The notes beneath the pieces were generated by a model. The model searched no databases. It was not told the DNA's origin and saw nothing but the letters and a program-made list of their open reading frames with translations. From positions 1-54,558 of the forward strand of contig CAZUYA010000005.1 of assembly GCA_964624685.1 (NCBI GenBank): 54,558 bases of DNA. The letters run 5' to 3'. The position numbers were made by a program, and so were the translations under genes. Source of the stretch: an uncultured Ruminococcus sp. GTDB taxonomy: Bacteria; Bacillota; Clostridia; Oscillospirales; CAG-272. Positions 5,082 to 17,533 of this stretch are shown here, piece after piece. Positions within the stretch are counted from its first letter, which is position 1. The number at the start of each line of letters is the position of its first letter.

Positions 5082-6524
5082 TTATAGTTGCAGAAGGTCG
5101 CGGAACGGAGTGATGTAAGCTTGCGCTCGTTCGGCATCGGATGCTTCCGCAAAGATGCGCAATAACGGTTCCGTGCCGGAGAAGCGACAAATCACGAATG
5201 AATTGTCGGCAAAATAGACTTTACAGCCGTCCTCATAGTTGACGCGGACGATTTCGGCGGGGAAGTTCGGCAGACGCTTGTCCATCATTAACGTTTTTTG
5301 AATCTCCGACTTGCGTTCTGCGGGGAACGCGAGGTTGGCTTCCACCATTTCAAACCGTCCGAATCGTTTTTCCAATTCGGACAACAGCGCGGACGGAGAT
5401 CCCATGGCACATACCATTTCGATAAAGAGGGAAGCGGCATAGATGGAATCCTTCCCGTGAATGTGTCCACGCACGGTCAGTCCTCCGGAGGATTCCCCAC
5501 CGAGGATCGCATCGTAGCGGTCGATGCCGGCGGAAATATATTTGAATCCGATCGGAACTTCATAGCATCGTTCCCCGAACGATTCGGCAATGCGATCCAA
5601 CATGTGCGTTGTGGCAAGATTCCGAACCACGGGACCGTTCCATCCTTTGTGTGCGTGGAGGTAGTAGTACAAAAGGCAAAGAATTTCGTTGGCGTTGATG
5701 TATCGCCCGTTTTCATCTACCACACCCAATCGGTCACCATCACCGTCAAAGGCGATGCCGAGGTCGTAGTGACCGTCTACCACGCGGTTGCGTAAATCTT
5801 TCAGTCGGCTTTCCGTGGGGGCGGGAATCCCACCTCCGAAATAGGCGTCTTTGTTATCATTGATGAGATCGACGGTACAGCGTAATGATTGCAGGATCAC
5901 CACGAGCGGATAGGTACCGGAGCCGTGCATGGGATCAAACAGAATGCGGAGGGCGCGGCGTTTGATGACGTCTCGATTCAGTTTTTCCAAAATGTGATCG
6001 ATAAAATCGTTAAAAGGAGCATGGAGATAAGTGATCGCTCCTGTTTCTTCCCCGTGTTGGATCTCCATTGTGGGGATGGGTGAGGTGTCTTCGGCAATCA
6101 GTTGTTCCAAACGCGCGGTCGTTTCCACCGGCGCATCTCTTCCCTCATCCACGATCAATTTAATGCCGTTGTAGGAGGACGGATTGTGGCTGGCGGTGAT
6201 TTCCAATCCGTAATGCAACCCCAAATGTTGCACCAAAAACATAATGAGCGGTGTCGGTGTGCTGCGCTCGATCAAAATGACGTGAAATTGCAATGCGGTC
6301 ATGACTTCTGCAATCCAACGGGAGGCAACTTCGGACAAAAAGCGTCGATCGTATCCGATGACGATCGGACGTTCGGTTTTATGCTCTTCCTGCGCCAAAC
6401 GGCAAACGCCGCGCGCAACTTTTTGAATGTTGGATTTGATAAAATCATCGCCGATGATGCCTCGCCAGCCTCCTGTTCCGAAACAGATTGCAGACTCACT
6501 TTTTTGCAATTGTTTTGTATTCAT
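5082..6524 (-). CDS. Phosphoglucomutase/phosphomannomutase family protein (alpha-D-phosphohexomutase)
   Basis: Active-site loop TASHNPSSYNGIKL and metal loop FDGDGDRLG are both present. Confidence 0.9.
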   Translation of the reverse strand: MNTKQLQKSESAICFGTGGWRGIIGDDFIKSNIQKVARGVCRLAQEEHKTERPIVIGYDRRFLSEVASRWIAEVMTALQFHVILIERSTPTPLIMFLVQHLGLHYGLEITASHNPSSYNGIKLIVDEGRDAPVETTARLEQLIAEDTSPIPTMEIQHGEETGAITYLHAPFNDFIDHILEKLNRDVIKRRALRILFDPMHGSGTYPLVVILQSLRCTVDLINDNKDAYFGGGIPAPTESRLKDLRNRVVDGHYDLGIAFDGDGDRLGVVDENGRYINANEILCLLYYYLHAHKGWNGPVVRNLATTHMLDRIAESFGERCYEVPIGFKYISAGIDRYDAILGGESSGGLTVRGHIHGKDSIYAASLFIEMVCAMGSPSALLSELEKRFGRFEMVEANLAFPAERKSEIQKTLMMDKRLPNFPAEIVRVNYEDGCKVYFADNSFVICRFSGTEPLLRIFAEASDAERAQAYITPFRDLLQL

Positions 6525-11141: not shown

Positions 11142-12194
11142 ATGGAAAAGATTATTGCTGTGATCGGTTGCGGACGGATCGCCAACGCCGCACATTTTCC
11201 GGCACTGTCCCAAATGGAAGATGTCAGAATCAAATATGCGTGTGATTTGATCGAGGAAAAAGCCAAGAGTGCGGCTGAAAAATGGGGTGCCGAGCAGGTC
11301 ATCACCGACTATCATGTTGCACTGTCCGATCCGGAAGTGCAAACGGTTTATGTATTGACGCCGAACTATGCGCATTATGTCATCAGCATGGATGCGTTGA
11401 AAGCCGGGAAAAATGTATTTTGTGAAAAACCCATCACCATCAATTATGCACTTTCCAAAGAGATGGCAGACGAGGCGGCAAAGCAGGGCAAATTGCTCAA
11501 CATCGGCGTTTGCAACCGCTTCCACGAATCGGTTTGCCGCATTGCGAAAATGGTTGAGGAAGGCAAGCTTGGTGATGTCTATCATATTTATTGCTCTTTC
11601 CGCGCACATCGTTGCATTCCGGGACTGGGTGGTTCCTTTACCAACAAGAAAGAATCCGGCGGTGGCGTTTTGATCGACTGGGGCATCCACTATTTGGATT
11701 TGATTCTTTATATTTTGGGCGGTGCAAAGCTCAAGACTGTCAGTGCGGACACTTACAGCGAAATGGCAAAAGATATGAAGGCTTATCGTTGCAAGAGTAT
11801 GTGGGCGGAAGATACCAGAAATGTAGAAAACGGAATCAACGACGTGGAGGATTTTGTGACGGGTTATGTTCGTACCGACAAGGCATCCATTTCCTTTAAC
11901 GGCGCATGGGCGCAGAATATCGGCATCGGAGACACCTACATTGACTTTTTGGGTGACAAAGGCGGTGTCCGATTGGATTATTGCGGTCATTTCACTTTCT
12001 TCGGTTCCGATTTGTCCGAAGATCGTCCCGATTTTGAAATTCCGGATATGTACTATGCAGAGGATGCCGATTTTCTGGATGCATGCGAAACCGGACGCAA
12101 AAACAGAAGCTACATTGACAATATTTTGGAGAGTGCCAAGCTGTTGGATGCAATCTATCAATCGGCAGAGAAACATTGTGAGATCAATTTTTAA
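11142..12194 (+). CDS. Gfo/Idh/MocA family oxidoreductase
   Basis: N-terminal Rossmann motif IAVIGCGRIANAAHFPAL, 350 aa, 4 nt after the isomerase gene. Confidence 0.85.
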   Translation: MEKIIAVIGCGRIANAAHFPALSQMEDVRIKYACDLIEEKAKSAAEKWGAEQVITDYHVALSDPEVQTVYVLTPNYAHYVISMDALKAGKNVFCEKPITINYALSKEMADEAAKQGKLLNIGVCNRFHESVCRIAKMVEEGKLGDVYHIYCSFRAHRCIPGLGGSFTNKKESGGGVLIDWGIHYLDLILYILGGAKLKTVSADTYSEMAKDMKAYRCKSMWAEDTRNVENGINDVEDFVTGYVRTDKASISFNGAWAQNIGIGDTYIDFLGDKGGVRLDYCGHFTFFGSDLSEDRPDFEIPDMYYAEDADFLDACETGRKNRSYIDNILESAKLLDAIYQSAEKHCEINF

Positions 12195-12222
12195 GCCACA
12201 CCGGTCGGTGGGTTGATGAAAA

Positions 12223-12262
12223 AGAGGGAGTACCGAATAAAATCGGTATTCCCTCTTTTTTT
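12223..12262 (+). terminator. Rho-independent terminator
   Basis: AGAGGGAGTACCGA, loop, TCGGTATTCCCTCT, then TTTTTT. Confidence 0.85.
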
Positions 12263-12286
12263 CGATATTTGGCATTTGATTTGCTT

Positions 12287-12658
12287 TTACATTCGCTTTA
12301 ACAAGTGTGCCGCCTTCAACAGTCCGCGTTGATGTAATCGGTAACCCGTGCGGCGCGAAACGCCCAACAAAGCAGCTGTCCGTTCGATGCTTTCTCCTTT
12401 GACATAGTGATAATATAAGAGCAATTTTTCGCGGCTTGCTTTCATTTTTCCAAGGAGCATTCCGACCTCATACATTCGTGCGTGCCAATAAGCTTCATCA
12501 CCGGCAAGGACATCCTCACAGATTCCGGACGGATCGAATCGCTCTTTCCGTTTTCTTTCATATTTCTGTAATCCAAGCATATCGGCACACAATCGGTATC
12601 CGCATAAAAAATCTCTTGCGCGTTCCAGTTCGGCTTGTTCTGTTTCTGTCAATATCAT
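12287..12658 (-). CDS. Small sigma-70 region-4-like HTH protein (phage late-activator-like, 123 aa)
   Basis: The C-terminus LLLYYHYVKGESIERTAALLGVSRRTGYRLHQRGLLKAAHLL looks like a region-4 HTH. The start is re-called to MILTETEQ (ATG 12658) because the promoter pair at 12783-12856 sits inside the longer ORF. Confidence 0.55.
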   Translation of the reverse strand: MILTETEQAELERARDFLCGYRLCADMLGLQKYERKRKERFDPSGICEDVLAGDEAYWHARMYEVGMLLGKMKASREKLLLYYHYVKGESIERTAALLGVSRRTGYRLHQRGLLKAAHLLKRM

Positions 12659-12685
12659 TTGATTTACCGTCCTTTTCTGTTGATG

Positions 12686-12846
12686 TTCGCAAATCCGTAG
12701 TATCCGATGTTCAAGCTTTTTACAAAATTCCCCTTTTTTTGTAAAAAAATCAGGGTTTTTGTAGAAAAATGCAGAGTTGCTCTTGACATTCGTTCGGAAA
12801 TCCGTTATACTATTGATGTGCATTATCATTATATCGCATTTCCGAA
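12686..12846. repeat. Three copies of an operator-like 12-mer, TTCG(G/C)AAAT(C/G)CG
   Basis: TTCGCAAATCCG at 12686-12697, TTCGGAAATCCG at 12793-12804, and an inverted copy CGCATTTCCGAA at 12835-12846. The core CGGA-AA-TCCG is a short palindrome. Confidence 0.6.
12783..12811 (+). promoter_or_regulatory. Near-consensus promoter aimed at the XRE/S24 repressor operon
   Basis: TTGACA (12783-12788), 17 nt, TATACT (12806-12811). Confidence 0.7.
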
Positions 12847-12856
12847 AATATGTCAA
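12828..12856 (-). promoter_or_regulatory. Consensus promoter aimed at the small sigma-r4-like gene
   Basis: On the minus strand: TTGACA (12856-12851), 17 nt, TATAAT (12833-12828). Confidence 0.7.
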
Positions 12857-12949
12857 TAGATATTTCGGTTTTCATAAATATTTGGCACTTTCAACAAATT
12901 CATAAACTGATTTTGTGAAAGTTGCCGCATTCGATATGGAGGAACGCTT

Positions 12950-13576
12950 ATGGACTATTCCTTATTTGAGCGGTTATTGCACAGCCATGCTGTGACTGTC
13001 TATCAAGTTGCCAAAGCAACGCACATTTCCGCGTCTACGTTTACCGATTGGAAGAATGGAAGATCGGTTCCCAAGGCTGATAAACTTGCGCGGATCGCCG
13101 ACTATTTTTCCATTAGTTTGGACGAATTGCTCGGTACGGAAAACGGTCAACGTGCCGCAGAGCAATCCTATAAAAGTTTGCGTGCCAAAAAAATGGTTCC
13201 CGTCATCGGAATCATTCGTGCCGGTTCGCCCATCGTCACAGATGAAACATTGCTCGGACGTGAATTTGCCGATGTGGACGATGTGGAGGATTATTTCTAT
13301 TTGGAAGTTTGCGGGGACAGCATGAAAAATTGCGGCATTATAGAAGGATCGCTGGTTCTATTCCGTAAGCAGCAATATGCTGAAAACGGCGATATTGTCG
13401 CTTGTTTGGTGGACGGAGACAGTGCGACGGTCAAGCGATTTTCCAAACAGAACCATCGCATTGTGCTGTCACCGGAAAACGAGGACTACAAACCGATTGT
13501 CCTTACACCGGAGGATTTTGAAATCGGTCGCGCTCGTATTCTCGGTGTGGCATTGGAAGTCAAAACAAAATTTTGA
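12950..13576 (+). CDS. XRE-family HTH repressor with an S24 (LexA/CI-type) self-cleaving peptidase domain
   Basis: N-terminal HTH_3-like segment VYQVAKATHISASTFTDWKNGRSVP. Cleavage-site-like IRAGSP, Ser motif GDSM, Lys in TVKRF. GGAGG lies 7 nt upstream. Confidence 0.85.
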   Translation: MDYSLFERLLHSHAVTVYQVAKATHISASTFTDWKNGRSVPKADKLARIADYFSISLDELLGTENGQRAAEQSYKSLRAKKMVPVIGIIRAGSPIVTDETLLGREFADVDDVEDYFYLEVCGDSMKNCGIIEGSLVLFRKQQYAENGDIVACLVDGDSATVKRFSKQNHRIVLSPENEDYKPIVLTPEDFEIGRARILGVALEVKTKF

Positions 13577-13600
13577 GCTTTTTGTAAGGAAAGGAAGTAT

Positions 13601-15541
13601 ATGATAGCAATCAGTGTAAACGATTTATCCTTGAGTTTTGGGACCGTACCGATATTGGAACGAATTTCATTCTCCTTGGAAGAAGGCGATAAACTCGGTA
13701 TCATCGGTGTCAACGGGTGCGGAAAGTCTTCACTTTTTCGATTGATTATGGGAACATTGGAACCGACGGAAGGAGAAATTTACATTTCCAAAGGAAAATC
13801 CGTCGGGATTTTGACGCAGGACGGTGCGTTCGATTGCAACGATGCCGAGCAAACCGTATTGCACAGAATGTATTCCGCATTTCCGAAATTGTTGCAAATG
13901 GAACGGCAATTGAGCGAGTTGGAAGCGGCTTTGAAAGATGCCGATGCGCGTACCATCTCCATGTACACCGATTTGCACGAACGGTTTGTACGGGATGGAG
14001 GATTGGAATTTCGCGGACGGTGTGTCGCTATCCTGCAACGGCTCGGATTTGACAGTGTGATGCAAGCGCAAACGGTTGCCACGCTGTCGGGCGGTCAACG
14101 CACTCGTCTTGCGCTTGCGATCGAGCTGTGTCGTGAGCCGGATATTCTTTTGTTGGATGAGCCGACCAATCATCTTGACATTGAAACTTTGAGCTGGCTG
14201 GAAAGCTTTTTGAAGACGTATCCAAAGTGCGTGATGATCGTTTCCCATGACCGCTATTTTTTGGATCAGGTCACGAATAAAACATTATCCATTGAACATC
14301 ATCGGGCAAAACTGTATCATGGCGGTTATACACAAAGCATGGAACAACGTCGGTTGGATCGCGAAGCGGCTGAACATCGTTGGAAAAGTCAACAAAAGGA
14401 GATTGCGCGTCAGGAAGCGTACATTGCACAACAGCGCGCATGGAATCGGGAACGCAACATCATTGCCGCTGAAAGTCGTCAAAAACGATTGGATAAAATG
14501 GAACGCTTGGAACGTCCGCAAAACGATCCCCGCGCCATTCGAATGCGATTTTGGGAAGCGATTGCTTCCGGCAACGATGTTTTGGATGTGCGTGACTTGA
14601 GTATGGGATTTTCCGGAAGACTGTTATTTGAAAATCTTTCTTTTTCGGTCAAACGGCGGGAACACATCATGATCATCGGTCCCAACGGATGCGGAAAATC
14701 AACGTTGGTCAAACTTTTGTTGCACCGTATGGCACCGCTTTCCGGTACCGTTACGGAAGGGGATCATGTTTGTGTCGGATACTATGATCAGGAAAATCAA
14801 AATCTTTCCCCCGATCAAACGGTTTTGGATGAGCTGTGGAATGCTTATCCGACACGCACCGAAACCGAGATTCGCAATACGCTGGGGTTGTTTCGGTTTA
14901 CGGGCGACGATGTGTTCAAACTTGTGTCCGTACTCAGCGGTGGCGAACGTGCACGGCTGACACTCTCCAAACTGATGTTATCTAAAATGAATCTGTTGAT
15001 TTTGGATGAGCCGACCAATCACTTGGATGTCGATTCCCGTGAAGCCTTGGAGAGTGCATTGGAACAATTTGAAGGTACCGTGATTACCGTTTCGCATGAC
15101 CGTTATCTCATCGAAAAATTGGCAACGCGCATTTTGGAGTTGCACCCGGGAGCTGAATTTGGTGGAAATTTATTGGATTATTCCATCGACCATCCCGGAA
15201 ACGCATATACTGAGTTTCAGCAGTACAAAACGTTGCGGCGAGAACAGATCGGCTCTTCCGCTGTCGGAACCACTGTACCGAAAGCGGTTGGGAGCAATAA
15301 AGAACAGTATTTGAAAAATAAGCAAGCTGTTGCCGAAGCGCGTAAGCGAAAAGCGCAAGTGGAACGTATGAAAAAGGAATGTGATACGCTGGAATCGGAA
15401 CTGACGAAGATCGAATCGGAATTGTTCGGATCAGCCGCCTCCGACTATTTGCGTGCTGCCGAGTTGGATGAACGAAAAACGGAAATCGAAACAAGACTGA
15501 TGGATCTTTATGAGGCATTGGAAGCCGAAGAAACGGAGTAA
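13601..15541 (+). CDS. ABC-F family ATPase (Uup/YfmR-like, no TMD)
   Basis: Two NBDs: GVNGCGKSS with LSGGQRTRL, and GPNGCGKST with LSGGERARL. There is an inter-domain linker, a charged coiled-coil C-terminus and no TM segments. Confidence 0.85.
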   Translation: MIAISVNDLSLSFGTVPILERISFSLEEGDKLGIIGVNGCGKSSLFRLIMGTLEPTEGEIYISKGKSVGILTQDGAFDCNDAEQTVLHRMYSAFPKLLQMERQLSELEAALKDADARTISMYTDLHERFVRDGGLEFRGRCVAILQRLGFDSVMQAQTVATLSGGQRTRLALAIELCREPDILLLDEPTNHLDIETLSWLESFLKTYPKCVMIVSHDRYFLDQVTNKTLSIEHHRAKLYHGGYTQSMEQRRLDREAAEHRWKSQQKEIARQEAYIAQQRAWNRERNIIAAESRQKRLDKMERLERPQNDPRAIRMRFWEAIASGNDVLDVRDLSMGFSGRLLFENLSFSVKRREHIMIIGPNGCGKSTLVKLLLHRMAPLSGTVTEGDHVCVGYYDQENQNLSPDQTVLDELWNAYPTRTETEIRNTLGLFRFTGDDVFKLVSVLSGGERARLTLSKLMLSKMNLLILDEPTNHLDVDSREALESALEQFEGTVITVSHDRYLIEKLATRILELHPGAEFGGNLLDYSIDHPGNAYTEFQQYKTLRREQIGSSAVGTTVPKAVGSNKEQYLKNKQAVAEARKRKAQVERMKKECDTLESELTKIESELFGSAASDYLRAAELDERKTEIETRLMDLYEALEAEETE

Positions 15542-17504: not shown

Positions 17505-17533
17505 TTGACAAATTCATTTGTATATGATATAAT
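17505..17533 (+). promoter_or_regulatory. Perfect-consensus sigma-A promoter for the glycosyltransferase gene
   Basis: TTGACA (17505-17510), 17 nt, TATAAT (17528-17533). Confidence 0.75.

Follow-up and report, generated by a model that had tools for sequence, protein, structure and literature searches.

How could two regulator genes, transcribed away from a common intergenic region, be controlled by promoters that point at each other and nearly share a start site? The question is raised by positions 12659 to 12949 of contig CAZUYA010000005.1, assigned to an uncultured Ruminococcus sp.; the whole stretch of 54,558 nucleotides analysed here is called the window. To the right of this 291-nt region lies the gene of a repressor with an XRE-type helix-turn-helix (HTH) and a self-cleaving S24 domain, followed by an ABC-F ATPase gene, and to the left, on the minus strand, a small gene whose product resembles region 4 of sigma factors. 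We present evidence that the promoter pair is real and probably a control region, conserved almost to the base in about 70 species of uncultured gut Clostridia, and we examine how it may work as a two-gene switch. A preliminary description of the region had given promoter, gene and 12-mer coordinates that all proved correct; several of its other proposals are taken up below. The elements of the promoter pair are the following.

12783 to 12788, plus strand: -35 hexamer TTGACA of P(+), the promoter of the S24/ABC-F operon; TTGACA or TTGACT in 69/69 loci.
12806 to 12811, plus strand: -10 hexamer TATACT of P(+), after a 17-nt spacer; predicted start at about 12816 to 12820.
12851 to 12856, minus strand: -35 hexamer TTGACA of P(-), the promoter of the sigma-4-like gene.
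12828 to 12833, minus strand: -10 hexamer TATAAT of P(-), after a 17-nt spacer; predicted start at about 12819 to 12824.
12780 to 12859, unstranded: imperfect palindrome spanning both promoters, with 39-nt arms at 12780 to 12818 and 12821 to 12859.

P(+) is directed at the ATG of the S24 gene (12950) and P(-) at that of the small gene (12658). Predicted transcription starts were placed 5 to 9 nt downstream of each -10 hexamer, and since the two -10 hexamers of the window are separated by a gap of 16 bp, these starts fall within a few nucleotides of each other. Such a geometry would bar both promoters from being occupied at once, and each transcript would have to cross the opposite promoter. 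When sigma-70-type promoters were sought between 11000 and 16000, the top two were P(-), at 12/12, and P(+), at 11/12. Ten promoters of at least 11/12 were observed in the window against 0.9 expected, and two of them within the 291-nt intergenic region were obtained in 0/3000 composition-matched resamples. Further 12/12 promoters of the form TTGACA-17-TATAAT are present at 17505 (+), 36324 (-) and 54349 (+), three more that indicate an unusual frequency of full-consensus sigma-A promoters in this genome. The palindrome formed by the pair has arms that are 74% complementary, with 2 nt between them according to the repeat finder. An invertible promoter was considered and ruled out, because with arms only 2 nt apart there is nothing to invert.

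The strongest evidence comes from related species. By scanning one genome per species, we collected 73 orthologous loci, every one of them from uncultured gut or rumen Clostridia (Oscillospiraceae, 'Eubacterium sp. CAG:180' and similar metagenome-assembled genomes); the counts given for promoters and boxes refer to 69 loci, that is, the window and the 68 orthologous loci in which both genes are at most 1.2 kb apart. The face-to-face pair was found in 69/69, and likewise in L035. P(-) matched at 12/12 in 63 loci and at 11/12 in 6, P(+) at 12/12 in 45, at 11/12 in 17 and at 10/12 in 7; spacers were of 17 nt without exception and the gap between the -10 hexamers stayed within 13 to 17 bp. This geometry was held despite flanking proteins at 30-60% identity and a small protein that goes down to 30-40%. 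The preliminary description had made its proposal depend on the arrangement recurring in relatives, which it clearly does in the 68 loci beside the window, and its idea of facing promoters with mutually exclusive occupancy is thus borne out, as far as conservation and geometry can tell. Two loci without the small gene, L051 and L058, are informative: P(-) has decayed in both and P(+) is still at 12/12, so that P(-) is functionally tied to the small gene. A further variant, L052 (87-225), has its -10 boxes separated by a GC-rich insertion of 65 bp, and its predicted transcript overlap is therefore about 65 nt instead of about 0-8 nt.

Which proteins would be made from the two promoters? On the right-hand side, the genes and the determinants of cleavage are placed as follows.

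12950 to 13576, plus strand: gene of the XRE-type HTH and Peptidase S24 repressor, 208 residues, with a ribosome-binding site GGAGG at 12938 to 12942.
13220 to 13225, 13319 to 13321 and 13433 to 13435, plus strand: codons of the cleavage determinants Ala91-Gly92, Ser124 and Lys162, respectively.
13601 to 15541, plus strand: gene of an ABC-F ATPase, 646 residues, starting 24 nt after the S24 stop codon.

The identification of this gene as that of an S24 self-cleaving repressor stands. Its S24 domain is intact (Pfam Peptidase_S24, PF00717, 84.3 bits versus a cutoff of 23.3, residues 84-192), as is the N-terminal DNA-binding domain (HTH_26 with 38.5 bits and HTH_3 with 27.8, each exceeding its cutoff, over residues 8-64), and the motifs IRA91-G92SP, GDS124M and VK162RF, which contain the cleavage site and the catalytic residues, are invariant in 73 orthologues. 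The protein is 58-85% identical over the 73 loci at a constant length of 208 residues, and its conservation across species, about 80% identity, exceeds that of the adjacent ABC-F protein, about 72%. The LexA model TIGR00498 reached 100.2 bits, below its cutoff of 110.95, and matched residues 73-193 only, the N-terminus being XRE-type; this is therefore a CI/HdiR-type protein and not a canonical LexA. No Firmicutes SOS box CGAAC-N4-GTTCG was found in the intergenic region or in the 650 kb formed by the window plus the loci, a sample that is uninformative on genome-wide SOS since it holds no repair genes. The ABC-F gene (NCBIfam NF000355 at 444 bits, cutoff 380, with ABC_tran twice and ABC_tran_Xtn) lies immediately downstream of the S24 gene in 66/73 loci and is presumably co-transcribed with it from P(+). 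The leader of this operon contains a hairpin or palindrome at 12887-12922 (GGCACTTTCAACAAAT...ATTTTGTGAAAGTTGCC), of -20 kcal/mol as RNA and stable alone, possibly an attenuator or a further site of protein binding. The ACACAAA...TTGTRTAA of this leader is conserved in close and intermediate species and absent from distant ones, where leaders are of 55-60 nt; RNAalifold gave no consensus fold over 41 leaders, and in 12100-13800 Rfam gave no credible match, the best (E 0.23) falling far short of gathering scores.

On the left-hand side there is a single gene.

12287 to 12658, minus strand: gene of a small basic regulator, 123 residues, pI 9.3, with weak Pfam matches to HTH_23 and Sigma70_r4_2.

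This product combines an N-terminal helical part, with the conserved motifs FLCGYxLCxDML and CxCEDIL, and a C-terminal HTH like that of sigma-70 region 4. Profile scores are low, with Sigma70_r4_2 at 21.6 bits (cutoff 25.7) and TIGR02937 at 17.6 bits (cutoff 42.9; profile positions 107-161), and weak matches to PHROG 'transcriptional activator' families were obtained at E values of 1e-5 to 3e-7. The AlphaFold (AF2) model has a pLDDT of 91, and its C-terminal 60-70 residues superpose at 1.3-2 Å on the -35-binding region 4 of several sigma factors; these structural matches comprise 57-75 aligned columns and cover region 4 only. A search of solved-structure profiles gave SigF region 4 as top match (E 0.012). 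Pfam, this profile match and the superposition agree with the earlier suggestion of a sigma-r4-like gene. As region 2 is lacking, however, the protein cannot be classed as a sigma factor. Over its full length the model is weakly similar to small phage proteins of the sigma70_r4, DUF1492 and 'transcriptional activator' kinds (Foldseek/BFVD, E about 1e-3), and the family is narrow, with 304 of 1.84 billion cluster representatives at E ≤ 0.001.

The candidate binding sites in the intergenic region are four boxes, scored in bits with a position weight matrix whose maximum is 25.0.

12833 to 12846, unstranded: O1, within the P(-) spacer; reads TTCGGAAATGCGAT on the minus strand; 25.0 bits.
12864 to 12877, unstranded: O2, TTCGGTTTTCATAA, 31 bp from O1 and directly upstream of the P(-) -35 hexamer.
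12793 to 12806, unstranded: O3, TTCGGAAATCCGTT, within the 17-nt P(+) spacer; 22.7 bits.
12686 to 12699, unstranded: O4, TTCGCAAATCCGTA, in the small-gene leader, 12 nt upstream of the Shine-Dalgarno sequence on the mRNA; found in close relatives.

The preliminary description had recognised three copies of a 12-mer, TTCGGAAATCCG, which is exact at 12793 and has one mismatch each at 12835 (minus strand) and at 12686, and had proposed it as a shared operator-like element. The element is upheld by its conservation: O1 reaches at least 15 bits in 65/69 loci and is near-invariant in a conservation profile where the surrounding intergenic DNA has about 0 bits. O1 would be located at about +15 to +28 of the P(+) transcript. 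The P(-) spacer as a whole is nearly invariant (own-strand sequence TTGACAAtanTTCGGAAATGCGATATAAT), and the P(+) spacer has low information over the whole set. Purifying selection on the promoters and O1 is strong. The arms of the box are conserved and its central 4 nt vary among AAAT, ATTT, TTTT and AAAA, the variants found at P(-) being TTCGG-AAAT-GCGAT, TTCGG-TTTT-CCGAT, TTCGG-ATTT-CCGAT and TTCGG-AAAA-CCGAT. Because only these A/T positions vary, the element is best described as a 14-bp dyad, TTCGG-W4-CCGAA. This definition replaces the core given earlier, CGGA-AA-TCCG. A dyad with half-sites 10 bp apart fits a dimeric HTH of the XRE/434 type, and TTCGG-W4-CCGAA would suit such a protein better than the shorter core.

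The boxes differ in their distribution. The claim that both spacers carry the 12-mer is true of the window; over the whole set the P(-) copy is universal but the P(+) copy is restricted to 22/69 loci, those in which O3 has at least 15 bits. All of them belong to the window's subclade, and the mirror symmetry of the spacers is therefore a derived feature there. The three copies first described are all present in the window, but O2, 31-32 bp beyond O1, had been missed. In the window O2 has one degenerate arm, and relatives with an intact copy show a 20-bp palindrome, TATTTCGG-ATTT-CCGAAATA. All 15 loci with O2 at 9 bits or more keep it 31-32 bp from O1, approximately three helical turns. The specificity of the box for this locus is high: 96/98 boxes of at least 17 bits in the 650 kb lie within this one intergenic region. 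In L051 and L058, a perfect box, TTCGGTTTTCCGAA, is situated upstream of P(+), 330 nt upstream of the S24 gene. Two 12-mers with one mismatch also occur at 13876 and 41038. The one at 13876-13887, which encodes YSAFPKL in the ABC-F gene and is not in the six orthologues checked (L001-L006), is probably due to chance, and so is a box of 19.8 bits at 5583-5596 within a phosphoglucomutase gene. A search of the flanks for a regulon gave no second strong box and no conserved neighbour gene beyond the three.

O4 has a history of its own. Distant species and many intermediate ones possess, between P(-) and the sigma-4-like gene and on the same strand, a Cys-rich open reading frame (ORF) of 60-100 residues (L008, L011, L017, L020, L021, L024-L027, L038-L040, L045, L048, L059-L073) which is absent from the window. 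Its product follows the pattern CxxC...CP..CP...CxxCG...YGKPYCxxC, often with a terminal ...LIRICE; it has a weak LIM-like Pfam match, and no source gave it a name. This ancestral ORF, presumably co-transcribed with the sigma-4-like gene, has been lost from the window's clade, and the LIM-like zinc-ribbon protein it encodes could be a partner or an antagonist of the sigma-4-like protein. O4 in the window is a relic of the ...L-R-I-C-E codons of this lost ORF, in frame with the small gene. The preliminary description had placed the third 12-mer in a degenerate promoter copy, a proposal that has to be abandoned: neither TTGATG nor TATCCG is conserved in relatives, and the box is explained by the LRICE codons. 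Nor is the relic simply decaying. Across the approximately 22 species that lack the ORF, O4 is the sole conserved element of the leader besides the ribosome-binding site, which it abuts, and L029 and L033, where the ORF is lost too, keep both ORF-internal boxes, 54 bp apart.

Other observations concern the same leader. Upstream of ATG 12658, no stop codon interrupts the frame of the small gene over 66 codons (12659-12856, minus strand), a stretch that takes in the AT-rich leader and both promoters; the in-frame LRICE relic is part of the reason. A longer product was considered and rejected, as the sole in-frame start after the predicted transcription start is ATG 12823, at the start site itself and not conserved in relatives; this ATG coincides with the predicted P(-) start, and its use would make the mRNA leaderless. 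An AT-rich inverted repeat (12717-12767, 24-nt arms, 75% complementary) occupies the part of the leader from which the Cys-rich ORF was lost.

In 69/73 loci the small gene is found upstream of the S24 gene and divergent from it; of the others, two are cut by contig ends and two, L051 and L058, have a HAD-like gene in its place. All species examined combine the box with the S24 gene and the promoters. No other window gene is syntenic and flanks differ between species, which therefore defines a self-contained three-gene cassette. The rest of the window is ordinary chromosome, with genes for phosphoglucomutase, ABC exporters, a P-type ATPase, ProRS, FtsW and FtsK. As already stated in the preliminary description, there are no phage genes nearby: none was found among the window genes, and none within ±25 kb. 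Relatives of the small protein are absent from the 2.9 million viral contigs of IMG/VR and from 50,697 GenBank phage records, and a phage origin by direct homology was rejected on this ground; among phage proteins, the S24 protein comes closest to CI-like repressors, with 31-35% identity. The label 'phage-type' given earlier to the architecture may be kept as a remote analogy, but the small protein is without relatives in the viral collections; the bistability or SOS inducibility suggested along with it may be properties of the putative switch.

How would the cassette operate? We think it rather probable that the S24 repressor and the sigma-4-like gene form a two-gene switch, in which box-bound repressor and promoter competition cooperate in the following way. 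A dimer of the S24 repressor would bind the boxes; O1 and O2 would jointly block P(-) and keep the sigma-4-like gene off. Repressors bound at about +15 and about +46 of their own transcript, together with O3 in this clade, would make the S24/ABC-F operon negatively autoregulated. The repressor would then be removed by cutting itself at Ala91-Gly92 with its Ser124/Lys162 dyad, the trigger being perhaps RecA filaments after DNA damage, or another stress. Once freed, the perfect-consensus P(-) would fire and compete with the slightly weaker P(+) (TATACT) for a piece of DNA that holds one polymerase; competition would lower the re-synthesis of the repressor and make the transition switch-like. The small basic sigma-4-like protein would finally act on targets elsewhere in the genome. 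The S24 protein is favoured as the reader of the boxes because of their dyad symmetry, because of the locus specificity expected of an autoregulator and because boxes stand beside the S24 promoter in L051 and L058.

Several facts weigh against this mechanism. O2 is degenerate in many loci, the window included, and attains 9 bits in 15/69 only. More distant species have a P(+) spacer without a box, so that autoregulation there would have to proceed through the downstream roadblock sites and be weaker. O4 and the paired boxes of the longer loci overlap conserved codons (GFPYC, RICE), which makes their conservation partly a coding constraint. A search over ±5 kb yielded no target for the sigma-4-like protein. 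The LexA-like IrvR autocleaves without RecA, so dependence on RecA cannot be assumed (PMC7101444). Finally, the recognition helix of the small protein, SRRTGYR, is invariant (S101, R102, R103, T104), and this protein could read the boxes, alone or beside the repressor.

This last point leads to the main rival, a CI/Cro-like arrangement that we hold to be rather unlikely, in which the sigma-4-like protein also, or solely, binds the boxes and shuts P(+), autoregulates P(-), or both; the S24 protein would then use these operators too, preferring other sites among them, or have another target altogether. The invariant recognition helix implies a conserved DNA target, O2 directly upstream of the P(-) -35 hexamer has the position of a classical activator site, and the divergent partner is itself a DNA-binding regulator in modules of the lambda and IrvR/IrvA types (PMC7101444). 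Yet the region 4 domain of a sigma factor contacts DNA as a monomer, within RNA polymerase, at an asymmetric site of about 6 bp, unlike the boxes, which are dyads of 14 bp; P(-), already at 12/12, needs no activator; and perfect boxes stand beside the S24 promoter in the two fetched loci that have no small gene, L051 and L058. Pure promoter competition, with boxes read by an unlinked host factor or acting as UP-like or spacer-shape elements, would make the position of the S24 gene incidental and direct its product to other genes. In its favour, this genome is rich in near-consensus promoters (10 in 54 kb), O2 lies in A/T-rich DNA at the usual position of an UP element, and P(+) of distant species is devoid of any box. 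We nevertheless judge this explanation improbable, as conservation sits on the CG-containing arms and not on the A/T tracts, the box is essentially unique to the locus in 650 kb, which is expected for a locally encoded autoregulator, and box, S24 gene and promoters stay together in all species examined while flanks vary.

A decaying prophage immunity region, in which a cI gene and an early or late activator gene have lost their switch function, could be suspected from the CI-like nearest annotated phage relatives of the S24 protein (31-35% identity) and from the fold of the small protein, which is like that of the small phage sigma70_r4, DUF1492 and 'transcriptional activator' proteins and gives the PHROG matches. 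Decay is hardly reconciled with an S24 protein of about 80% identity and constant length (208 residues), better conserved than ABC-F and with invariant catalytic residues, nor with the strong purifying selection on promoters and O1. Phage genes are also missing within ±25 kb, IMG/VR and GenBank phages contain no relative of the small protein, and as flanks differ between species, the cassette is not part of a larger element. This last explanation is strongly disfavoured and, in our opinion, very improbable.

The proposed repressor switch can be compared with several known systems. Its two-tier logic is shared with PrtR/PrtN, the pyocin control of Pseudomonas aeruginosa, in which, as Matsui et al. 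reportedly described in 1993, a chromosomal, autocleavable CI-like repressor silences a small positive regulator and cleavage releases the activator, which turns on distant genes; that pair differs by an unrelated partner protein, a Gram-negative host, known targets (the pyocin genes) and another promoter layout. By analogy of function, the closest systems seem to be domesticated CI-type pairs such as IrvR/IrvA, a CI/Cro-like pair domesticated in the core genome of Streptococcus mutans (PMC7101444). IrvR, too, is a chromosomal, non-prophage repressor with an XRE HTH and a LexA-like S24 domain, an Ala-Gly site and a Ser/Lys dyad, and it represses the adjacent gene of a small regulator whose product then controls genes elsewhere, the same logic as proposed here. 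However, IrvA is a Cro-like HTH protein and the partner described here is sigma-region-4-like, and for IrvR/IrvA neither a face-to-face pair of consensus promoters nor co-transcription with an ABC-F gene has been described (PMC7101444). HdiR of Lactococcus and Streptococcus and the non-canonical LexA of Bacteroidetes also join a CI-type N-terminal HTH to an S24 domain (PMC8565304), and this combination is the trait shared with our protein. Those repressors are chromosomal, autoregulated and responsive to DNA damage, replacing a canonical LexA or standing beside it, and they control DNA-repair or mutagenesis genes directly, whereas the only visible targets here would be the repressor's own operon with ABC-F and the sigma-4-like gene.

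For the small protein, the nearest comparison is with the Ltr superfamily of phage late activators, comprising RinA, ArpU, LtrA (sigma70_r4 family) and LtrB (DUF1492) (PMC3753634). Like these activators, which are under cI control (PMC3753634), it is small and basic, with a sigma-region-4-like C-terminal DNA-binding part. Unlike them, it is encoded by the chromosome, it has no detectable relative on viral contigs and its matches to phage families are weak; with no phage context and no viral relatives, membership of the Ltr superfamily therefore fails on its defining context. As for the promoters, the start sites of coliphage 186 are 62 bp apart, so that its transcripts overlap substantially. 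Promoter competition at face-to-face promoters has been documented for the pR/pL pair of this phage (PMC3675496) and for the Ecl18kI restriction-modification system (PMC2760811). Divergent genes and facing promoters are common to these systems and ours, one promoter being operator-controlled there and the other affected by competition or interference; but their starts are further apart and their promoters are not both at consensus, whereas here starts nearly coincide and both promoters are at or near full consensus. The near-symmetric palindrome made of both promoters sets the window's clade apart from phage 186 and Ecl18kI.

Together, these comparisons separate what was known from what is new. 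Neither face-to-face promoters nor LexA-like repressors silencing an adjacent regulator are without precedent. New are a switch built from two full-consensus promoters with nearly coincident starts, whose geometry is kept within 4 bp over about 70 species; a partner from a narrow, uncharacterised family of region-4-only sigma-like proteins; and the fixed operon that joins the repressor gene to that of an ABC-F ATPase. At about 1.3 kb including both regulator genes, the module is compact, its cis elements are clearly defined, and it is therefore directly testable in a heterologous host and reusable as a synthetic toggle. A bolder reading, to which we give a small chance, would make the XRE-S24 protein the principal sensor of stress or DNA damage in a large lineage of uncultured gut and rumen Clostridia: its cleavage would flip the promoter toggle and free a region-4-only protein, ancestrally paired with a LIM-like zinc-ribbon partner that was maybe its antagonist, to reprogram RNA polymerase at a dispersed regulon, and the ABC-F protein would link the response to translation or DNA repair. 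In any case, the hosts of this cassette are abundant yet uncultured Clostridia of gut and rumen in which very few regulators have been characterised.

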